This document shows, piece by piece, positions 3,205 through 10,796 of a stretch of 64,000 nucleotides of DNA. Positions within the stretch are counted from its first letter, which is position 1. Each line of letters opens with the position of its first letter. The position numbers and the translations under genes were made by a program. The DNA comes from Candidatus Poribacteria bacterium. Its GTDB lineage: Bacteria; Poribacteria; WGA-4E; WGA-3G. Below the pieces are notes generated by a model. The model saw only the letters and a program-made list of their open reading frames with translations, was not told where the DNA came from and did not search any database. The stretch lies in NCBI GenBank assembly GCA_965205015.1, contig OZ242029.1, positions 4,992,001 through 5,056,000 of the forward strand, read 5' to 3'.

Positions 3205-3377
3205 AGAAAAATTGGGCGGACACAAGGTCCGCCCTTACATTTGTGCGTGCGGTTCACCGACATAAAAAAAAGAGCTCGGTAAGGTTGTTTGACGCTCGAT
3301 GCGGTTGGGGTGAAAGACCCTACCGAGTCTAAGGCAGTGAATTACCGAAACCACGCGACATCGGAAAGTGGACGCCT

Positions 3378-4751
3378 CTATGAGAGGTTGTATCCACGTT
3401 CGTTGTGTTGCGACAGATCGAGCCCTTGACGTTCCTCATCCTCTTCAACGCGTAAGCCGACCGTGGCATCCACAATTTTGAGAATAATAAACGAAAGCAC
3501 ACCACTCCAAACAATGGTAACAATGATACTGAGCAGTTGCGCCCACACCTGCGTTCCTATTGTCATACCGTCCGCTAATCCAACACCCCCTAAGCCATCG
3601 GCGACAAAAACGCCAGTCAACAAGGCACCGACAATTCCACCGATACCGTGAACACCGAATGCATCCAGGGAATCGTCATAACCGAGTTGTGTCTTCAGGC
3701 TGGTGGCACCCCAGAAACAGACAACACCGGAGACGATGCCGATAACAAGCGCGCCCATCGGTCCTACAGAGCCTGAGGCAGGGGTAATCGCGACCAATCC
3801 AGCCACTGCTCCTGTTACAATCCCCAAAGCACTCGGTTTGCCGTGTTTCGCCCATTCCACAAACATCCACGCAATAGCGGCGGTAGCAGTTGAAATCTGG
3901 GTAACGAGCATTGCCATGCCAGCGGCACCATCAGCAGCCACAGCACTACCCGCATTGAAGCCAAACCAACCCACCCAGAGCATCGAAGCCCCAACGACGG
4001 TGAGTGTCAAACTGTGTGGTGGCATCGGTGTTGTCTGGTAGCCGATCCGTTTGCCGACTAATATCGCAGCGACTAACGCTGCGATACCTGCGTTAATATG
4101 CACAACGGTTCCACCCGCGAAATCAAGCGCGCCGATAATATCGCCAAATAACGAACCATCCCCCGACCATGCCATGTGACAGAGCGGTGCGTAGACAATT
4201 ATCGACCACAGAACAGAGAAGATTAACATCGCCGAGAACTTCATCCGCTCCGCGAATGCGCCAGCGATGAGTGCGGGTGTAATAATCGCAAATGTCAACT
4301 GGAAGGTAATAAAAACGGTCTCGGGGATAGTCCCAGAAAGGGTGTCCACGCCGATACCCCGTAAAAACATGGTTCCGAGTCCACCGACAAAAGAGGTAAG
4401 CGTGACTTTCCCTGCCTCCATACCGGCGGTGTTAAAGGCAAGGCTGTAGCCACAGATAACCCAGATAATAGTAATCAACCCTGTCAATGCAAAACATTGC
4501 ATAAGCACAGAGAGGACATTTTGGACGCGCACGAGCCCGCCGTAGAAGAGCGCAAGCCCCGGAATCGTCATAAAGAGCACAAGGGCAGTTGACGTTAACA
4601 TCCAAGCAGTATCCCCTGAATCAGGGGCAGTTGCCTCTTGTGCCATCGCTAAACTTGGCAGACCACACAGCAATAAAATAACAATTAGCGTTCTAATTCG
4701 TGTATAACCAGATCGCTCCTTTGTAGATGGTGATGCACATCGTTGTTGCAT
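3378..4751 (-). CDS. amtB: ammonium transporter, AmtB/Mep type
   Basis: PGLALFYGG, DFAGGTVVH, GWFGFNAGS, DAFGVHG (both pore His present); start moved to ATG at 4751 behind a GGAGG RBS. Confidence 0.95.
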   Translation of the reverse strand: MQQRCASPSTKERSGYTRIRTLIVILLLCGLPSLAMAQEATAPDSGDTAWMLTSTALVLFMTIPGLALFYGGLVRVQNVLSVLMQCFALTGLITIIWVICGYSLAFNTAGMEAGKVTLTSFVGGLGTMFLRGIGVDTLSGTIPETVFITFQLTFAIITPALIAGAFAERMKFSAMLIFSVLWSIIVYAPLCHMAWSGDGSLFGDIIGALDFAGGTVVHINAGIAALVAAILVGKRIGYQTTPMPPHSLTLTVVGASMLWVGWFGFNAGSAVAADGAAGMAMLVTQISTATAAIAWMFVEWAKHGKPSALGIVTGAVAGLVAITPASGSVGPMGALVIGIVSGVVCFWGATSLKTQLGYDDSLDAFGVHGIGGIVGALLTGVFVADGLGGVGLADGMTIGTQVWAQLLSIIVTIVWSGVLSFIILKIVDATVGLRVEEDEERQGLDLSQHNERGYNLS

Positions 4752-4940
4752 CTGTATCCTCCATTCGATGAGTCTCGCAAGCCAAGGCTTGCTTTCAGTA
4801 CAAGCAGATGTCGCTTGTTTTTTTGTTGCTCTAAGGTAGACAACTTTGTCTACCGTTTCCATTTTTGTAGGGACAGGTAGTTGTGTCCCACTAACCGTTT
4901 CTTGAAAGAGAACCTCATTCGCAGAAGTTGTTGATTTAGC

Positions 4941-5127: not shown

Positions 5128-6465
5128 TTAACGCATCGAGGAAACATTAAAGTCAGGATAAGCACTTGCGCCGTGTTCTTCGTAGTCCAGTCCTGTTTGT
5201 TCTTCCTCTTCACTCACCCGTAAACCTGTAACAGCCTTAATTCCGTAGAACAGAATAAAGCCAGTAACGAGGCACCATGCGAGAACGGCAACGACACCGA
5301 CGATTTGTGCCCAGAGGAGTGTAAATCCTCCACCGAAGAAAAGGCCACTTGAGCTGTCGAAAAATCCGAGGAGAATTGTACCTAAGGCACCACACGTTCC
5401 ATGTACGGAGATGGCACCGACCGGGTCATCAATGCGGAGTTTCTCAAACAACAGAACACTCAGAACAACAACAATACCACCGAGCGCGCCAATAATCGCG
5501 GCGGATACTGGATTCACAGACGCACAACCGGCAGTAATTGCTACCAATCCAGCGAGTGCACCGTTGAGCGACATACCAGCATCGGGTTTGCCAAGAAAAA
5601 TCCACGCGGTAATCATAGCAGTAATTGCACCTGCGGCAGCAGCGAGGTTCGTGGTTACGGCAATACCGGAAATTTCAGCGGCATCGGCACCCATTTGACT
5701 CCCGGGATTAAATCCGAACCAACCGAGCCATAAGATAAAGACCCCGAGTGCAGCGAGCGGGAGATTGTGCCCAGCAATCGGTCGTGGATTTCCATCGCTA
5801 TCGTATTTACCGGCACGGGGACCTAAGACAACAGCACCCGTCAGTGCGAGCCAACCACCGGTTGAGTGAACGACTGTAGATCCTGCGAAATCTGACATAC
5901 CAAAGTCTGATAGCCAACCCCCACCCCAAATCCAGTGTCCAACAACAGGGTAGATGATACCGGTGATGAAGACGCTGTAAATCAGGTAGCTTTTGAACTG
6001 TGTCCGTTCCGCCATTGCACCGGAAACGATAGTTGCGGCGGTTGCGGCGAACACCAATTGGAAGAGCCATGCGGCGTGTGTCGGGACAGAACTCCACTCT
6101 AACGAGGTAAAGGCACTCGAATCAGCGGGAACGAACCATCCGCTTGTTCCCATGAAGGCGTTACCAACACCGAACATAATGGCGAAACCGATTGCCCAAT
6201 AAGCAATTGAACCCATTGAGAAGTCCAGCAAGTTTTTCATTAGAATGTTAACAGCGTTCTTGGCACGGGTGAAGCCAGACTCCACCATAGCGAACCCTGC
6301 CTGCATAAAGAAAACCAGAAATGCAGCGACGAGCACCCACAATGTGTCTGCCATATACTTTGCGTCAGAAACCTTCTCACCTTCAATGGATCCGTTTAAG
6401 GCGAAAACGTTCAGGCTCAGCAAACATGTGAGTACCAAAACTGTTATGATAATCTTACTTTTCAT
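5128..6465 (-). CDS. amt: ammonium transporter, Amt1-like subfamily
   Basis: FFMQAGFAMVESG, IVSGAMAER, DFAGSTVVH, GWFGFNPGS, AISVHG; signal-like N-terminus; AAGGAG RBS. Confidence 0.95.
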   Translation of the reverse strand: MKSKIIITVLVLTCLLSLNVFALNGSIEGEKVSDAKYMADTLWVLVAAFLVFFMQAGFAMVESGFTRAKNAVNILMKNLLDFSMGSIAYWAIGFAIMFGVGNAFMGTSGWFVPADSSAFTSLEWSSVPTHAAWLFQLVFAATAATIVSGAMAERTQFKSYLIYSVFITGIIYPVVGHWIWGGGWLSDFGMSDFAGSTVVHSTGGWLALTGAVVLGPRAGKYDSDGNPRPIAGHNLPLAALGVFILWLGWFGFNPGSQMGADAAEISGIAVTTNLAAAAGAITAMITAWIFLGKPDAGMSLNGALAGLVAITAGCASVNPVSAAIIGALGGIVVVLSVLLFEKLRIDDPVGAISVHGTCGALGTILLGFFDSSSGLFFGGGFTLLWAQIVGVVAVLAWCLVTGFILFYGIKAVTGLRVSEEEEQTGLDYEEHGASAYPDFNVSSMR

Positions 6466-6487
6466 GCGAAATATCTCCTTGTAGAAC

Positions 6488-6580
6488 GGCAGTCAGTTAT
6501 CAGTTGTCAGCAGTCAGTGAAGAGAGACTGATATATCAAACGCCTCTTGTTACGCATAACTCATAACCAACAACTGATAG
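6488..6580. repeat. heptamer (CAGTTRT-like) short tandem repeats in inverted arrangement
   Basis: cagtcagttatcagttgtcagcagtcag ... ataactcataaccaacaactgatag; related arrays at 7572-7725, 10043-10100 and ~58517-58615. Confidence 0.6.
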
Positions 6581-6589
6581 TTTCCATCT

Positions 6590-7312
6590 TTACCAAGAAC
6601 GGACGAAAGTCATTCTGCCGGTGATCCCTGTTTCATCATCGCCTTTCTGGGTTTCAAATCCCACAAAGACGCCGAGGGTGTTATTTTCGCCATAGCCGAC
6701 ATTGGCACGGAGACCGGGGGCTAAACTACTGAGTCCGCCTTCGGTTAAATCAAGCGTCACCTCTACTTGGGGACCAACAGAGAGCGTGTCATTTAGCGAC
6801 AGCAGCACAAAATTGCGGAGGTAGAACGAATCGCCTGCTTCTTCATCAAACATAGAATTGAAGAACCCCTGTATCCATGACTCAAAGTAGATGGAACCCG
6901 CGGTGAGATAGGTAAACAACTGCGGTGCAATTAAGGAAGAAGGACCATTCGGGGCAGCGTAATCGAACCCAATACCGACCATTGGAAGGAAACTGAGGGA
7001 CAGGGAATCGCTGTCAACGACCGGAATGCCGATTCCGACGTCTAACTCACCGAATGTGTCAACGACGTAAATATCGGTGTCCAGAGAGAGATCGCCGAGG
7101 AAGCTTGGGGAATGACTGGCACCCACCCAGATCTGTGTTCCTAAACTATCTGTATCTGTCCGAAACCATCCGGAAACACCAGAAGTCTCTTCTTCTGCTG
7201 CCATCTCTTCACCCGCTTCATGCGCATCTGCATAAACCATTGAAATACTACCAACTGCAAAAATACAAACCATTACTAACAAACGAACCAACCAAAACGC
7301 ATGCGTTTTCAT
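6590..7312 (-). CDS. putative outer-membrane beta-barrel protein (paralog A)
   Basis: Signal peptide ending VYA-DAH, alternating amphipathic strands, C-terminal aromatic (MTFVRSW); AAGGAG RBS; similar to 9282-10022. Confidence 0.65.
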   Translation of the reverse strand: MKTHAFWLVRLLVMVCIFAVGSISMVYADAHEAGEEMAAEEETSGVSGWFRTDTDSLGTQIWVGASHSPSFLGDLSLDTDIYVVDTFGELDVGIGIPVVDSDSLSLSFLPMVGIGFDYAAPNGPSSLIAPQLFTYLTAGSIYFESWIQGFFNSMFDEEAGDSFYLRNFVLLSLNDTLSVGPQVEVTLDLTEGGLSSLAPGLRANVGYGENNTLGVFVGFETQKGDDETGITGRMTFVRSW

Positions 7313-7430
7313 CAAAAACTCCTTTATACGCGTTTTGAAACGCGCCTACAAGATTACACTTTAAATTTGAGCAACGCACTCTCACGGTGCGATCATGTCA
7401 GTCTGCGGTTTTCATAGAGAAAGAGCCCGC

Positions 7431-7459
7431 TTGACTTCAGCATAAATTTGTGATATAGT
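7431..7459 (+). promoter_or_regulatory. putative sigma70 promoter facing the GT-C gene
   Basis: TTGACT-N17-TATAGT with extended TG. Confidence 0.5.
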
Positions 7460-7551
7460 GATTTTGCCTGTCTTTTTCGATAAAAGGGGACAGGCGTTTA
7501 TCGTAAAGACGAGGTAACCGCGCCCCTACGGTTGCACCTATTTCCGTTTAA

Positions 7552-7568
7552 AGCAAAAGGCGTGCCAA
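7552..7568 (-). promoter_or_regulatory. sigma54 (-24/-12) promoter
   Basis: Minus strand reads TTGGCACGCCTTTTGCT, matching consensus TGGCACG-N4-TTGC, upstream of the barrel-amt genes. Confidence 0.85.
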
Positions 7569-7733
7569 TTAATAGTTATCGGTCGTCAGTGCATTCGCTT
7601 CGCTCATTTTCAGTTGTCAGTAATCTAAACACCACAAGCATTTAACCGATAATAGATAATGAATAACTCTTGCTGTTAGGTAAACTTTTAAAACTGATAA
7701 CCGACAACTGATAACTGACAACTCTTAAAAAAA

Positions 7734-7773
7734 TGCTGAAATTTTCAACAAAACATTGCCCAAAAAAGATGCA
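7734..7773. promoter_or_regulatory. tandem putative NtrC-type enhancer sites
   Basis: TGCTGAAATTTTCAACA (7734-7750) and TGCCCAAAAAAGATGCA (7757-7773); TGC-N11-(G/A)CA, ~170-205 bp upstream of the -24 box. Confidence 0.45.
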
Positions 7774-9139
7774 AATCGTGCTTTTGAGCGGTGTTGTACT
7801 GTTCGGAACAGCACTCCGATTTTGGAACTTAGGGCAGTGGAGTTTCTGGATTGATGAGGTTTTCACCGTTCGAGACGCCCAACACCTTTCAGTCGAAAGT
7901 TGGCGAGTGATCCCAAACCCGCTTCCGTATCTTGCGGTGAAGTTATCAACCTCAATTGCTGGCAGTCGTGAGTGGGGGGCGCGTTTAATTTCGTGCCTGG
8001 TCGGCATCGCCTCCATTCCGATGGCTTTTGGGTTAGGCCGAACCCTCTTCAATTGGCGGATCGGACTCCTGAGTAGCGCATTTGTGGCATGCTCCAGTTG
8101 GCATCTGTTTTGGGCACAAAATGCGCGTTATCCAGTCTTTACCTTTTTCTTTGGTGTCCTGACAGCGTGGTTTTTTTACACATCCCTTGAACGCGATTCA
8201 ACACTTTTAACCATAGGTGCGCTCGTTTCCTGTTTCTGTTTAATCCTTTCGCACACCCTCGCCGTTGTGATCGTTCCGGCATTCGCTGCGTATGCCGTGA
8301 TGTGTCTATTAGAAAAATCTGACAGAAAGCGGTGGCTGAATCTTCTCATCTTCTTTATCCCCTTCGCGCTGCCGGTGCTTGCATTAGCACTTCCACAAGC
8401 TCGAGGTTACCTGTTCTCCGGATGGGGCCGCAACGTATGGCAGCGGAGTCCACTCTATATCGTGCTAACACTCGTCCAAGGCGTGAGTATTCCAGTCGCT
8501 GTTACCGCTTTTTTCGCTCCCATCGCGACGCGATTCAACAAAGCCACGCTCTTCTTACTCTGTTATGCGGGGGTACCGCTGATCCTTTTTCTGATCGCAT
8601 CGCAGCTCCAAAACGTCGCCGGTTATTACCTATTTTGGACGATACCTGCCTACTTTATTCTGGCAGGCGTTGCGTGTGAACGGGTTTGGCAAGTAATAGA
8701 AGGTAGGTCTGGAAGAATACTCGGTATGCTCGTGCCGTGCGTACTGCTGGTGACGCTCCTGTCGCAGGACTATCTCTATTTCAAAATCGAAAATGGTGGG
8801 AGACCGAAATGGCGGGAGGCGTTTGAAGTCGTACAAGTAGAGAAGAAACCTACCGATAAAGTGGTACTCTCAGAACCTGAGATGGGTAGGTATTATCTGC
8901 CAGAATTGACCCCGATCTACATCGGGGGGTTATTAGAGGATTCGGAAGCGTTTGAAAGGGAGTGGGAAACTTCGGGAAGAGAACGGTTATGGTTTCTTGT
9001 AGATGTGGCGAGTTTTAATGTCTTCGATGGAAATGAAAACGTCCGCAATTGGATTCGTCAACGCGGACATATCGTAAAAACACTGCCTGCCTTTTCACGG
9101 GCGAAAGACAGGACAATTCATGTGTATCTGTTGGAATAG
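7769..9139 (+). CDS. GT-C fold membrane glycosyltransferase (PMT/ArnT-like, family 39/83)
   Basis: LRFWNLGQWSFWIDE, P.PY, EWGARL, AQNARY motifs; many TM helices; start uncertain (7733 or 7769). Confidence 0.8.
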   Translation: MQIVLLSGVVLFGTALRFWNLGQWSFWIDEVFTVRDAQHLSVESWRVIPNPLPYLAVKLSTSIAGSREWGARLISCLVGIASIPMAFGLGRTLFNWRIGLLSSAFVACSSWHLFWAQNARYPVFTFFFGVLTAWFFYTSLERDSTLLTIGALVSCFCLILSHTLAVVIVPAFAAYAVMCLLEKSDRKRWLNLLIFFIPFALPVLALALPQARGYLFSGWGRNVWQRSPLYIVLTLVQGVSIPVAVTAFFAPIATRFNKATLFLLCYAGVPLILFLIASQLQNVAGYYLFWTIPAYFILAGVACERVWQVIEGRSGRILGMLVPCVLLVTLLSQDYLYFKIENGGRPKWREAFEVVQVEKKPTDKVVLSEPEMGRYYLPELTPIYIGGLLEDSEAFEREWETSGRERLWFLVDVASFNVFDGNENVRNWIRQRGHIVKTLPAFSRAKDRTIHVYLLE

Positions 9140-9281
9140 CATAACCGAAGTCTGAATCGCGGATTACACAGATGACACGAATTTTAAAAGGCGCGTTTCC
9201 TATCTGCTTGAAACGCGCCCCTATACATAGGGAGAACGATCTCTCGACCGCGATGCTTTAGCATCTGAAGGAAAAAGGGTG

Positions 9282-10022
9282 CTACCATCTACGGGTAAAA
9301 TTCATTCTACCGGTAAGTCCTGTTTGACCTTCGTCCTTTTTGGTTTCATACCCAACATATATGCCGAGTGTATTATTCTCGCCATAACCGATGTTCACAC
9401 GTCCGCCGAAATTGAGAGCCCACAATCCACCCCCCTCACCGAGACCGAGCACGGATTCAAACTGTGGACCCACCGCGACAGTTTCGTTTAAAGCGTATGT
9501 AAGGTACGTCCGGTTGTAGACTTCATCAAGGGTTTCGCTATCAAATATGGTTTTGATTGTGCTGATTGTCCAATGGAAGCCGAAGATTTTACCGGCGGGT
9601 AGGATCACAAAGATTTGTGGGTATAAGGCATAGGGGCCATCTGGACTGACATAATTGAACCCGACACCGAGCATCGGTGTTAGCAGCAGTGCCATGCTGT
9701 CATTCGCGATAACAGGGAATGAAACGCCCATATCAAACTCGCCCAAATGATCGTTCACATAGATATTAGAATCAAATGAAATACCACCGCTGAGCGGATG
9801 ACTTGCACCAACCAAAAAATAGGTGCCTAAACTATCAACATCAATTTGGAACCAGCCTGTTATCTTCGGTTTTTCTTCTGCTTTTTCACCTTCCATTTCA
9901 TGACCATCGGCGAAGGCAGTAGAGAAGTTGGTAATAGATATTATACAAATTAGTACCCCGATAGCAATTAACCGAAAGCCATTATTGATAGCCCGTGCAA
10001 GGCAGATGAAATGATTGTTCAT
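9282..10022 (-). CDS. putative outer-membrane beta-barrel protein (paralog B)
   Basis: Signal peptide AFA-DGH; shares GWF..D.DSLGT, VGASH, VGPQ.E, GYGENNTLG and TGRM.F.R.W with 6590-7312. Confidence 0.65.
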   Translation of the reverse strand: MNNHFICLARAINNGFRLIAIGVLICIISITNFSTAFADGHEMEGEKAEEKPKITGWFQIDVDSLGTYFLVGASHPLSGGISFDSNIYVNDHLGEFDMGVSFPVIANDSMALLLTPMLGVGFNYVSPDGPYALYPQIFVILPAGKIFGFHWTISTIKTIFDSETLDEVYNRTYLTYALNETVAVGPQFESVLGLGEGGGLWALNFGGRVNIGYGENNTLGIYVGYETKKDEGQTGLTGRMNFTRRW

Positions 10023-10106: not shown

Positions 10107-10796
10107 TTATTCAGCTTGCCCGACCTGTTCCATAAGCCGTTCCAGCTTACTCGGATCTTTGACCCCTTTTGATGCTTCGACGCCGGAACAGAGGTCGATG
10201 CCGTGAGGTCGGATTGTTTCAATAGCGGCTTTGACGTTCTCTGGACGAATCCCACCTGCAAAGAAGACTGGCAGCGGACTTTCTGTAATGAGTTCAGCAG
10301 CGACATTCCAATCACAGGTTTTTCCCGTGCCACCGTATCTCGGTTTCTCAAGACTCACATCAACGCTATCAAAGAGTAGAAAATCCGCACCGGCATCCCG
10401 GTATGCCTGCATCTCTGTGCGTACAGCCGGTATATCTACATTTTCAGGACTTCCGGCTGGCAAATAGACAGACTTCCAGAATTCACAGGTGCCTGTGCGC
10501 TTGAGTTCCTCAACCTGCTGTGGTGCCTCCTGTCCGAGGAGTTGAACGGCAAACGGCTGAACTTGTGAAATGATTTCTTGGATGTCGGATGTTGAGCGGT
10601 TATAGAGTAGAATTACGGTAGGAATCGGACTTCCGCTGGCAATTTCGGCGGCTTGCGTCGCGGAGCGGGTCCGTTCAGAGACGGCAACATCCACCAACAC
10701 GCCGATGTAATCCGCACCAGCATCGGCGGCAAGTCGAGCATCATGGATAGAAGTGATGCCGCAGATTTTAACACTGCAGCGGGATTCTTTGGACAT
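10107..10796 (-). CDS. trpF: phosphoribosylanthranilate isomerase
   Basis: VKICGIT, GADYIG, LFDS...GGTGKTCDW, FAGGIRPENV, GIDLCSGVE. Confidence 0.9.
   Translation of the reverse strand: MSKESRCSVKICGITSIHDARLAADAGADYIGVLVDVAVSERTRSATQAAEIASGSPIPTVILLYNRSTSDIQEIISQVQPFAVQLLGQEAPQQVEELKRTGTCEFWKSVYLPAGSPENVDIPAVRTEMQAYRDAGADFLLFDSVDVSLEKPRYGGTGKTCDWNVAAELITESPLPVFFAGGIRPENVKAAIETIRPHGIDLCSGVEASKGVKDPSKLERLMEQVGQAE

Follow-up and report, generated by a model that had tools for sequence, protein, structure and literature searches.

We describe here two genes for small secreted proteins, porA and porB, in a stretch of DNA of 64,000 nucleotides (nt) from a Candidatus Poribacteria bacterium (assembly GCA_965205015.1, contig OZ242029.1, positions 4,992,001 to 5,056,000; the window). 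The first of these lies between a sigma-54 promoter element and two genes for ammonium transporters, amt1 and amt2. On balance, and with modest confidence, we consider that PorA is probably a small monomeric outer-membrane channel of 12 strands, acid-lined and likely to be cation-selective, made in one large clade of Poribacteria from a sigma-54-dependent porA-amt1(-amt2) operon under nitrogen limitation and providing a point of entry for ammonium.

The porA gene (6590-7315, minus strand) is an open reading frame of 241 amino acids starting at TTG, and is the first gene of the putative operon; the database form of the protein (P0001) has 240 amino acids and starts at the next ATG. It is followed on the same strand, after a gap of 124 nt, by amt1 (5128-6465, minus strand; PF00909, E 1.2e-130), and next by amt2 (3378-4862, minus strand; PF00909, E 9.4e-118). 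The best matches to the protein and to the locus come exclusively from metagenome-assembled genomes of Poribacteria; in L001 the identity at the PorA protein is 98%. A single-protein scan of species-representative genomes provided 80 porA loci, all from Poribacteria and with 64-98% identity in PorA. An amt gene lies directly after porA on the same strand in every one of these (80/80), with a median spacer of ~150 nt. In 71 loci this gene is amt1; in the other nine it is amt2, and none of these has amt1. The related genome G001 contains exactly two barrel copies and exactly two PF00909 genes, both of the latter in the porA operon.

The promoter element is an exact match to TGGCAC-N5-TTGC (i.e. 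the -24/-12 form recognized by sigma-54) at 7553-7567 on the minus strand, TGGCACGCCTTTTGC (listed as 7552-7568, TTGGCACGCCTTTTGCT). It lies ~240 nt upstream of the start of porA, from which it is separated by a long 5′ leader read from the sequence (7316-7551, minus strand). This is the sole occurrence of the pattern with no mismatch in the window. The pattern with one mismatch is not enriched (three observed, 4.0 expected), so that support for the site comes from its conservation and not from the count. In 75 of the 80 loci the strict form is found in the 500 nt ahead of porA, and in 79 there is a loose form; the single locus lacking the loose form (L036) offers only ~400 nt of upstream sequence. 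The position of the element ranges from -133 to -466 relative to the start of porA, and the length of the leader is thus variable. Genome G001 encodes one rpoN (PF04552, E 2.6e-58) and at least eight enhancer-binding proteins (PF00158, each with E<1e-60). No riboswitch or other family reached its gathering score when the porA leader was scanned against Rfam. The leader also contains a hairpin with a 13-bp stem (7465-7496); it resembles a terminator only when read on the plus strand, on which there is no gene end here.

Several features are consistent with porA and the amt genes being transcribed together. The porA-amt1 spacer contains no terminator-like site on the minus strand, and a strong terminator-like hairpin after amt2 closes the operon (3214-3234, scored as such on both strands; 8-bp stem with seven GC pairs). 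The interval between amt1 and amt2 contains a sigma-70-like site (4969-4941) and weak hairpins (5030-5011), and amt2 may therefore have its own promoter. Contigs assembled from four metatranscriptome runs of one study are ~90% identical to the window and cover porA and amt1; two of them (X4 record 24, 2317 nt, and X3 record 15, 2562 nt) bridge amt1, the spacer and porA. They would fit expression of these genes, and their co-transcription, in a related strain.

A preliminary description of the window had placed one of two paralogous genes first behind a near-perfect sigma-54 promoter and directly before amt, with a diverged second copy downstream of trpF under different control. Both the promoter and the adjacency are borne out by their conservation across the 80 loci. 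The second copy, porB, begins 85 nt beyond trpF, has diverged to 45% identity and has no such element, in agreement with the description.

A predicted family of outer-membrane barrels

PorB (9282-10022, minus strand; 246 amino acids) can be aligned with PorA over 239 residues (E 1e-70). The alignment contains the motifs GWF(R/Q).D.DSLGT, VGPQ.E and GYGENNTLG...TG(I/L)TGRM.F.R.W, and both proteins have a hydrophobic, signal-like N-terminal segment and end in Trp. In PorA the hydrophobic helix spans residues 4-19 and is followed by VYA/D, which we read as the cleavage site. The C-terminus is GRMTFVRSW, corresponding to a family consensus GR.TF..(W/F) that is typical of the C-terminal signal of outer-membrane proteins. 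PorA thus carries both hallmarks of an outer-membrane barrel, i.e. a signal peptide and an aromatic C-terminal beta-signal.

Neither protein has a match in Pfam at E≤1 or in NCBIfam at E≤10, and a sequence-profile search of the PDB gave nothing meaningful (a single match at E 1.1). When 1.84 billion representatives were searched exhaustively with HMMER, 147 clusters passed E≤1e-3, 101 of them also passed 1e-10 and 25 passed 1e-30; the family is therefore real but small. It is found mainly in Poribacteria and Myxococcota. Eight of the 120 outgroup homologues listed bear organism names (Kofleriaceae 2, Myxococcales 2, Polyangiaceae 1, 'Deltaproteobacteria' 1 and Poribacteria 2). The majority of members combine a signal-like N-terminus with the C-terminal consensus given above, and a linker rich in Ala, Pro and Glu is often present. 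In an alignment of 65 family sequences G181, G201 and R234 are invariant, while R52, D54, D56, G94, G114, P131, E145, W147, R167 and E185 are conserved at 90% or more.

The 65-sequence alignment was used to build an AlphaFold2 model of PorA, with a mean predicted local distance difference test score of 89.7 and a predicted template-modelling score of 0.79. In the model the signal helix is followed by a disordered acidic segment (residues 21-36) and then by 12 strands over residues 47-240. Outer-membrane barrels were the sole matches to the model found by Foldseek. Comparison with 48,161 representative chains using VIA-align placed three channels at the top: VhGalP (Z 18.2, root-mean-square deviation (rmsd) 2.9 over 177 aligned residues), KdgM (Z 17.4) and NanC (Z 16.6). 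Lower ranks were occupied by FapF, a COG4313 channel, intimin (Z 15.8 for its beta-domain) and the beta-domains of autotransporters, and PcoB (Z 13.5); further 12-stranded barrels among the matches were LpxR (Z 12.8) and OMPLA (Z 10.9). The sequence identity of PorA with the structural matches from VhGalP down to PcoB is 6-15%. The predicted fold provides strong support for PorA and PorB as putative outer-membrane beta-barrels. The preliminary description had seen two secreted paralogues of ~240 amino acids sharing the motifs above, expected a membrane barrel and regarded the proteins as a candidate for an undescribed system; the alignment, the model and the absence of any curated-family match (Pfam, NCBIfam and a profile scan of the 65 members) all agree with it.

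The strands of PorA contain 11 acidic residues (D54, D56, D79, D81, E90, D92, D101, D118, E145, E185 and D189) and five basic ones (R52, R167, R203, R234 and R239). Conservation was assessed using 81 PorA and 49 PorB sequences. Most of the charged strand residues are fixed in PorA, with R52, D54, D56, D81, E90, D92, E145, R167, E185, R203 and R234 at a conservation of 1.00. The acid-rich character of the strands in the model suggests cation selectivity, assuming an open pore. Fixed differences from PorA to PorB are found at R52Q, Q61Y, W63L, D81N, V85N, E145F, Q149I, F151T and L171T; for R52Q, Q61Y, W63L, D81N, E145F and Q149I each state is present at 0.94-1.00 in its own clade. A specificity of PorB distinct from that of PorA would fit these differences.

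Extent of the association with amt

Members of the family were found in 107 of 120 sampled genomes of the Poribacteria phylum (79 with two matches, 27 with one and one with three); their absence from the other 13 may reflect incompleteness. In 49 of the 80 porA loci the sequence fetched around porA also includes the gene for a second barrel, porB, and in 38 of these 49 trpF ends less than 600 nt upstream of it on the same strand. A maximum-likelihood tree of 100 rows (LG+G4; support by the Shimodaira-Hasegawa-like approximate likelihood ratio test only) was calculated from every fourth porA and every third porB of the extracted copies, together with 32 representatives and the full set of single-type copies and metagenomic copies. 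All of the main Poribacteria copies form one clade (support 98), which divides into porA (87) on one side and porB together with the single-type copies (100) on the other. The outgroup rows have many long branches, and the trustworthy nodes are the supported ones within Poribacteria. The branching suggests that the porA/porB duplication predates the split of these lineages, with a distant Bacteroidota-like outgroup, and that the single-type lineages have either lost porA or never fixed it.

Relatives outside the main clade were sought by scanning Joint Genome Institute metagenome contigs with a 10-sequence outgroup alignment, which gave 12 loci. Two of these, L085 and L086, have amt nearby. 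In L085 (GC content 0.45) an amt1-like gene (70% identity), an FlpD-like gene and the barrel gene lie on one strand, and the barrel groups in the tree, on a deep branch, with P0328, a protein labelled Candidatus Poribacteria. In L086 (GC content 0.65) an amt2-like gene (63% identity) is divergent from the barrel gene at a distance of 267 nt, and the barrel is placed in a Myxococcota-like group. By our own estimate, for a 5 Mb genome with some two amt genes, adjacency in two of 12 loci is well above chance. Note that the amt genes of L085 and L086 are highly identical to the poribacterial ones, and for this reason the two may not be independent cases. No sigma-54-like element precedes the barrel genes in L081-L091; there is one loose match in L086, inside amt.

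A number of observations weigh against PorA as a nitrogen-controlled ammonium channel. There is no sigma-54 element ahead of porB, and porB is not linked to amt. Nineteen loci were taken from 18 genomes whose copies score like porB only, and none of the 19 has an amt, trpF or PMT_2 gene within 6 kb; no sigma-54-like element lies beside the barrel gene in these loci, the only three matches to the pattern being ~3-5 kb away. Seven amt regions from five of the genomes with porB-type copies only, covering all nine of their amt genes, contain no barrel gene or remnant of one (tblastn matches to PorA and PorB all have E>0.7). TGGCA(C/T)-N5-TTGC is present directly upstream of amt in five of the seven. 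The same locus as in the window is recognizable in L117 (G019:C1:1940000-1946200), where trpF, the PMT_2 gene, the sigma-54 element, a leader of ~630 nt, an amt2-like gene and a glnK-like P-II gene are all found without porA, amt1 or porB. Because the element is retained before amt where porA is absent, as in L117, the promoter is that of the amt operon, with porA as an added first gene; and because the sigma-54 amt operon persists in lineages lacking porA, the gene is dispensable for ammonium uptake there. Among the 12 metagenomic loci ten show no amt, although five of these have flanks of less than 1.3 kb. Every named homologue is annotated as 'hypothetical protein'.

Other difficulties concern need, regulation and the pore itself. 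Ammonium normally passes the outer membrane through general porins, so that there is no obvious need for a dedicated channel. The assembled RNA contigs cannot prove one transcript, and DNA carry-over is possible; X3 record 22 extends upstream of the promoter element to 7700. A k-mer search upstream of the sigma-54 element found no activator binding site, and the 9-mers conserved there come from the first codons (MLKFS...) of the PMT_2 gene, which is divergent. The faces of the strands were assigned by parity rather than from coordinates, and the parity is ambiguous for strands 6-8. Many aromatic residues and glycines appear to face inwards, so the lumen of PorA could be narrow or filled.

The preliminary description had linked the family as a whole to Amt. 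That part holds for the porA clade and fails for porB, for the lineages with porB-type copies only and for the bulk of the metagenomic relatives. It is the porA clade, and not the family at large, that is linked to Amt.

Possible functions of PorA

If PorA serves ammonium entry, nitrogen limitation would lead an enhancer-binding protein to activate the sigma-54 promoter of porA-amt1(-amt2). The cell would then make PorA as an outer-membrane entry for ammonium, or for a methylammonium-like analogue, alongside the inner-membrane Amt proteins. PorB would be an older paralogue under separate control, and probably a channel of similar type with a housekeeping role.

The closest structural parallels are the substrate-specific porins KdgM, NanC and VhGalP, which are small and monomeric (Pfam KdgM) and with which the PorA model (~210 mature residues) would share a 12-stranded fold (Z 16.6-18.2, rmsd 2.8-3.4 over 161-177 residues). 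Their genes, like porA, lie in operons with a matching inner-membrane uptake system. However, sequence identity with PorA is just 8-10%, and none of 65 family members matched the KdgM profile at E≤0.1. The pores of KdgM and NanC are lined by basic residues and accept acidic sugars, and genes of the KdgM family are found with those for pectin or sialic acid, whereas PorA has acid-rich strands and is encoded beside amt. PcoB is also a 12-stranded barrel, and at 15% its identity with PorA is the highest in the match list. The PcoB pore is electronegative; unlike PcoB, PorA has no copper-resistance context and no Pfam match.

In gene position the nearest counterpart is TorF/Gcw_chp (PF09694, TIGR02001), a putative porin and small barrel whose gene lies before glnK-amtB behind a sigma-54 promoter. 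The porA gene shares this arrangement, with amt as the next gene and the sigma-54 element upstream, but the porA operon of the window contains no glnK or other P-II gene. As the preliminary description had noted, there is no clear motif match between the two: none of 65 family members matched Gcw_chp (PF09694) at E≤0.1, and neither did any of three Poribacteria genomes, while a Caulobacter control was matched.

The PorA/PorB family has a weak link to DUF6733 (PF20507), which may reflect a distant relationship. This uncharacterized family, mostly from Bacteroidota, has a length similar to that of PorA and PorB. At E≤0.1 the DUF6733 profile weakly matched seven of the 65 members, with a lowest E of 8.5e-4 (scores are 17 bits for P0210 and 11.7 bits for P0199), and all members tested are below the 27-bit cut-off; the two window proteins have no match at E≤1. 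In the ESM Atlas a DUF6733 cluster was found at 0.97 (189/256 shared features), as were two unnamed Acidobacteriota clusters, also at 0.97. DUF6733 was absent from the matches in 10 Poribacteria genomes, but it was likewise not matched in the control genomes, so this result is uninformative.

Porins have been associated with nitrogen supply elsewhere. In Kuenenia stuttgartiensis a porin with a BBP2 domain is induced under ammonium limitation, and the authors suggest that it raises ammonium influx (PMC7438415). The regulon of NtrC in Methylomonas sp. DH-1 includes a porin (PMC12799797). The Kuenenia protein is much larger than PorA and belongs to a different barrel family, and the family of the Methylomonas porin is not stated in the part of the report consulted; the consulted parts of the two reports describe no co-operonic amt for either. 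A search of main texts in a literature library found no mention of DUF6733, Gcw_chp, TIGR02001 or PF09694. Among the papers listed, none connects an amt-linked porin with Poribacteria, and queries about porins encoded in amt operons yielded nothing more specific. A nitrogen-controlled barrel beside amt has precedents in other barrel families.

It is rather unlikely, in our view, that PorA is a general porin for small solutes, whose co-transcription with amt raises permeability in nitrogen starvation or merely reflects a chance landing site of the duplicate. Such a role would accommodate the unrelated neighbourhoods of porB and the single-type copies, as well as the persistence of a sigma-54 amt operon in lineages without porA. 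Porin_4 gave no match in three Poribacteria genomes, while control genomes were matched, and so the family may be the everyday porin of the phylum. Yet PorA and PorB differ at strand positions fixed in each clade, which suggests specialization; the adjacency of porA and amt is kept throughout the 80 loci, including the nine without amt1 where porA abuts amt2; and an amt gene recurs beside the barrel in L085 and L086. A channel for another cation or nitrogenous solute (e.g. methylated amines, polyamines, urea or a metal), related but not identical to the substrate of Amt, seems to us a little less probable still. Acid-rich strands would suit any small cation, the copper-related PcoB is a clear structural match, and among the metagenomic homologues that of L091 comes after a gene for an MFS transporter while that of L088 lies beside a gene for an AsnC/Lrp regulator. 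Against this, the two Amt proteins are the sole transporters encoded in the operon, and in G001 these are the sole Amt genes; no genes for metal, urea or amine catabolism were seen in the 80 loci, for which the probes were the window genes only.

We think it improbable that PorA is not a channel at all, but a structural barrel or an outer-membrane enzyme that modifies lipid A or acts as a phospholipase. LpxR, OMPLA and the intimin beta-domain, which are enzymes or anchors, are among its structural matches, and the lumen could be filled, given the several aromatic residues and glycines that face inwards. But the three best matches are channels and score above the enzymes, the residues conserved across the family are alternating charges inside the strands, and the operon context is one of transport. 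Moreover, no outward His/Ser pair of the OMPLA/PagL type was recognized.

A dedicated ammonium channel thus remains the reading of PorA that we prefer. A wider proposal can be put forward, which we offer tentatively and think more likely to be wrong than right: that an unnamed family of acid-lined 12-stranded barrels, with the porA branch as a dedicated channel for ammonium or methylammonium, has been recruited to amt operons repeatedly (in the porA clade, L085 and L086), in parallel with the unrelated TorF/Gcw_chp. If this were true, a specific step in ammonium uptake at the outer membrane would have evolved repeatedly in bacteria. We know of no outer-membrane ammonium channel that has been characterized in any organism. 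Ammonium uptake is usually viewed as the work of inner-membrane Amt together with unspecific diffusion through general porins; a conserved acid-rich barrel heading the sole amt operon of a clade of sponge symbionts argues that passage across the outer membrane can be both specific and regulated. Poribacteria inhabit sponge tissue, where ammonium from the host is a main nitrogen source, and the porA-amt operon is therefore probably central to the symbiosis. Through the family assignment, several hundred 'hypothetical proteins' of Poribacteria and Myxococcota also acquire a name and a likely role.

Other features of the locus

The order of genes in this part of the window is trpF and porB (minus strand), the PMT_2 gene (plus strand), and then the sigma-54 element, leader, porA, amt1 and amt2 (minus strand). 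trpF occupies 10107-10796 on the minus strand (PF00697, E 3e-33). The PMT_2 gene (7733-9139, plus strand, divergent from porA; PF13231, E 8.8e-12) encodes a glycosyltransferase-like membrane protein of the PMT_2 type, and it is syntenic in nearly all of the 80 porA loci as well as in L117, which lacks porA. Its first codons (7733-7760, ATGCTGAAATTTTCA..., encoding MLKFS) are conserved at the nucleotide level far beyond synonymous drift in 75-77 of 85 loci, and a similar string is kept in L113, where no PMT_2 gene follows. They include the near-palindrome TGAAAATTTCA, and so the start of the PMT_2 gene may double as a regulatory site. A tandem repeat of an AACTGAC-like heptad (4.6 copies, 7692-7723) ends ~9 nt ahead of the ATG of this gene. 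The porA-amt1 spacer (6466-6589, minus strand) contains inverted copies of similar heptads, and a hairpin predicted there is no more stable than in shuffled sequences (z -0.5).

The amt2 open reading frame as listed has ~60 surplus N-terminal residues ahead of a signal-like segment. Since the Pfam match begins only at residue 86, translation probably starts at an internal codon downstream of 4862. In L118 and L119 (genomes G030 and G016) an amt2-like gene lacks a sigma-54-like element, and the gene ahead of it, in the same orientation, encodes an unassigned secreted protein of 611-678 amino acids.

The neighbours of the barrel gene in the metagenomic loci are diverse. They include another gene resembling those of outer-membrane proteins, DJ-1 and a Ser/Thr kinase in L083; DCC1-like, HIT, RNase T, methyltransferase and MaoC genes within 8 kb on each side in L087; a dihydroorotate dehydrogenase in L088, in addition to the AsnC/Lrp regulator; and a P-domain protein and a peroxiredoxin in L090. 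In L089 a gene for a porin of the BBP2 type (1170-2120, E 7e-35) lies directly downstream of the barrel gene; this is the type of porin reported to be induced by ammonium limitation in Kuenenia (PMC7438415).

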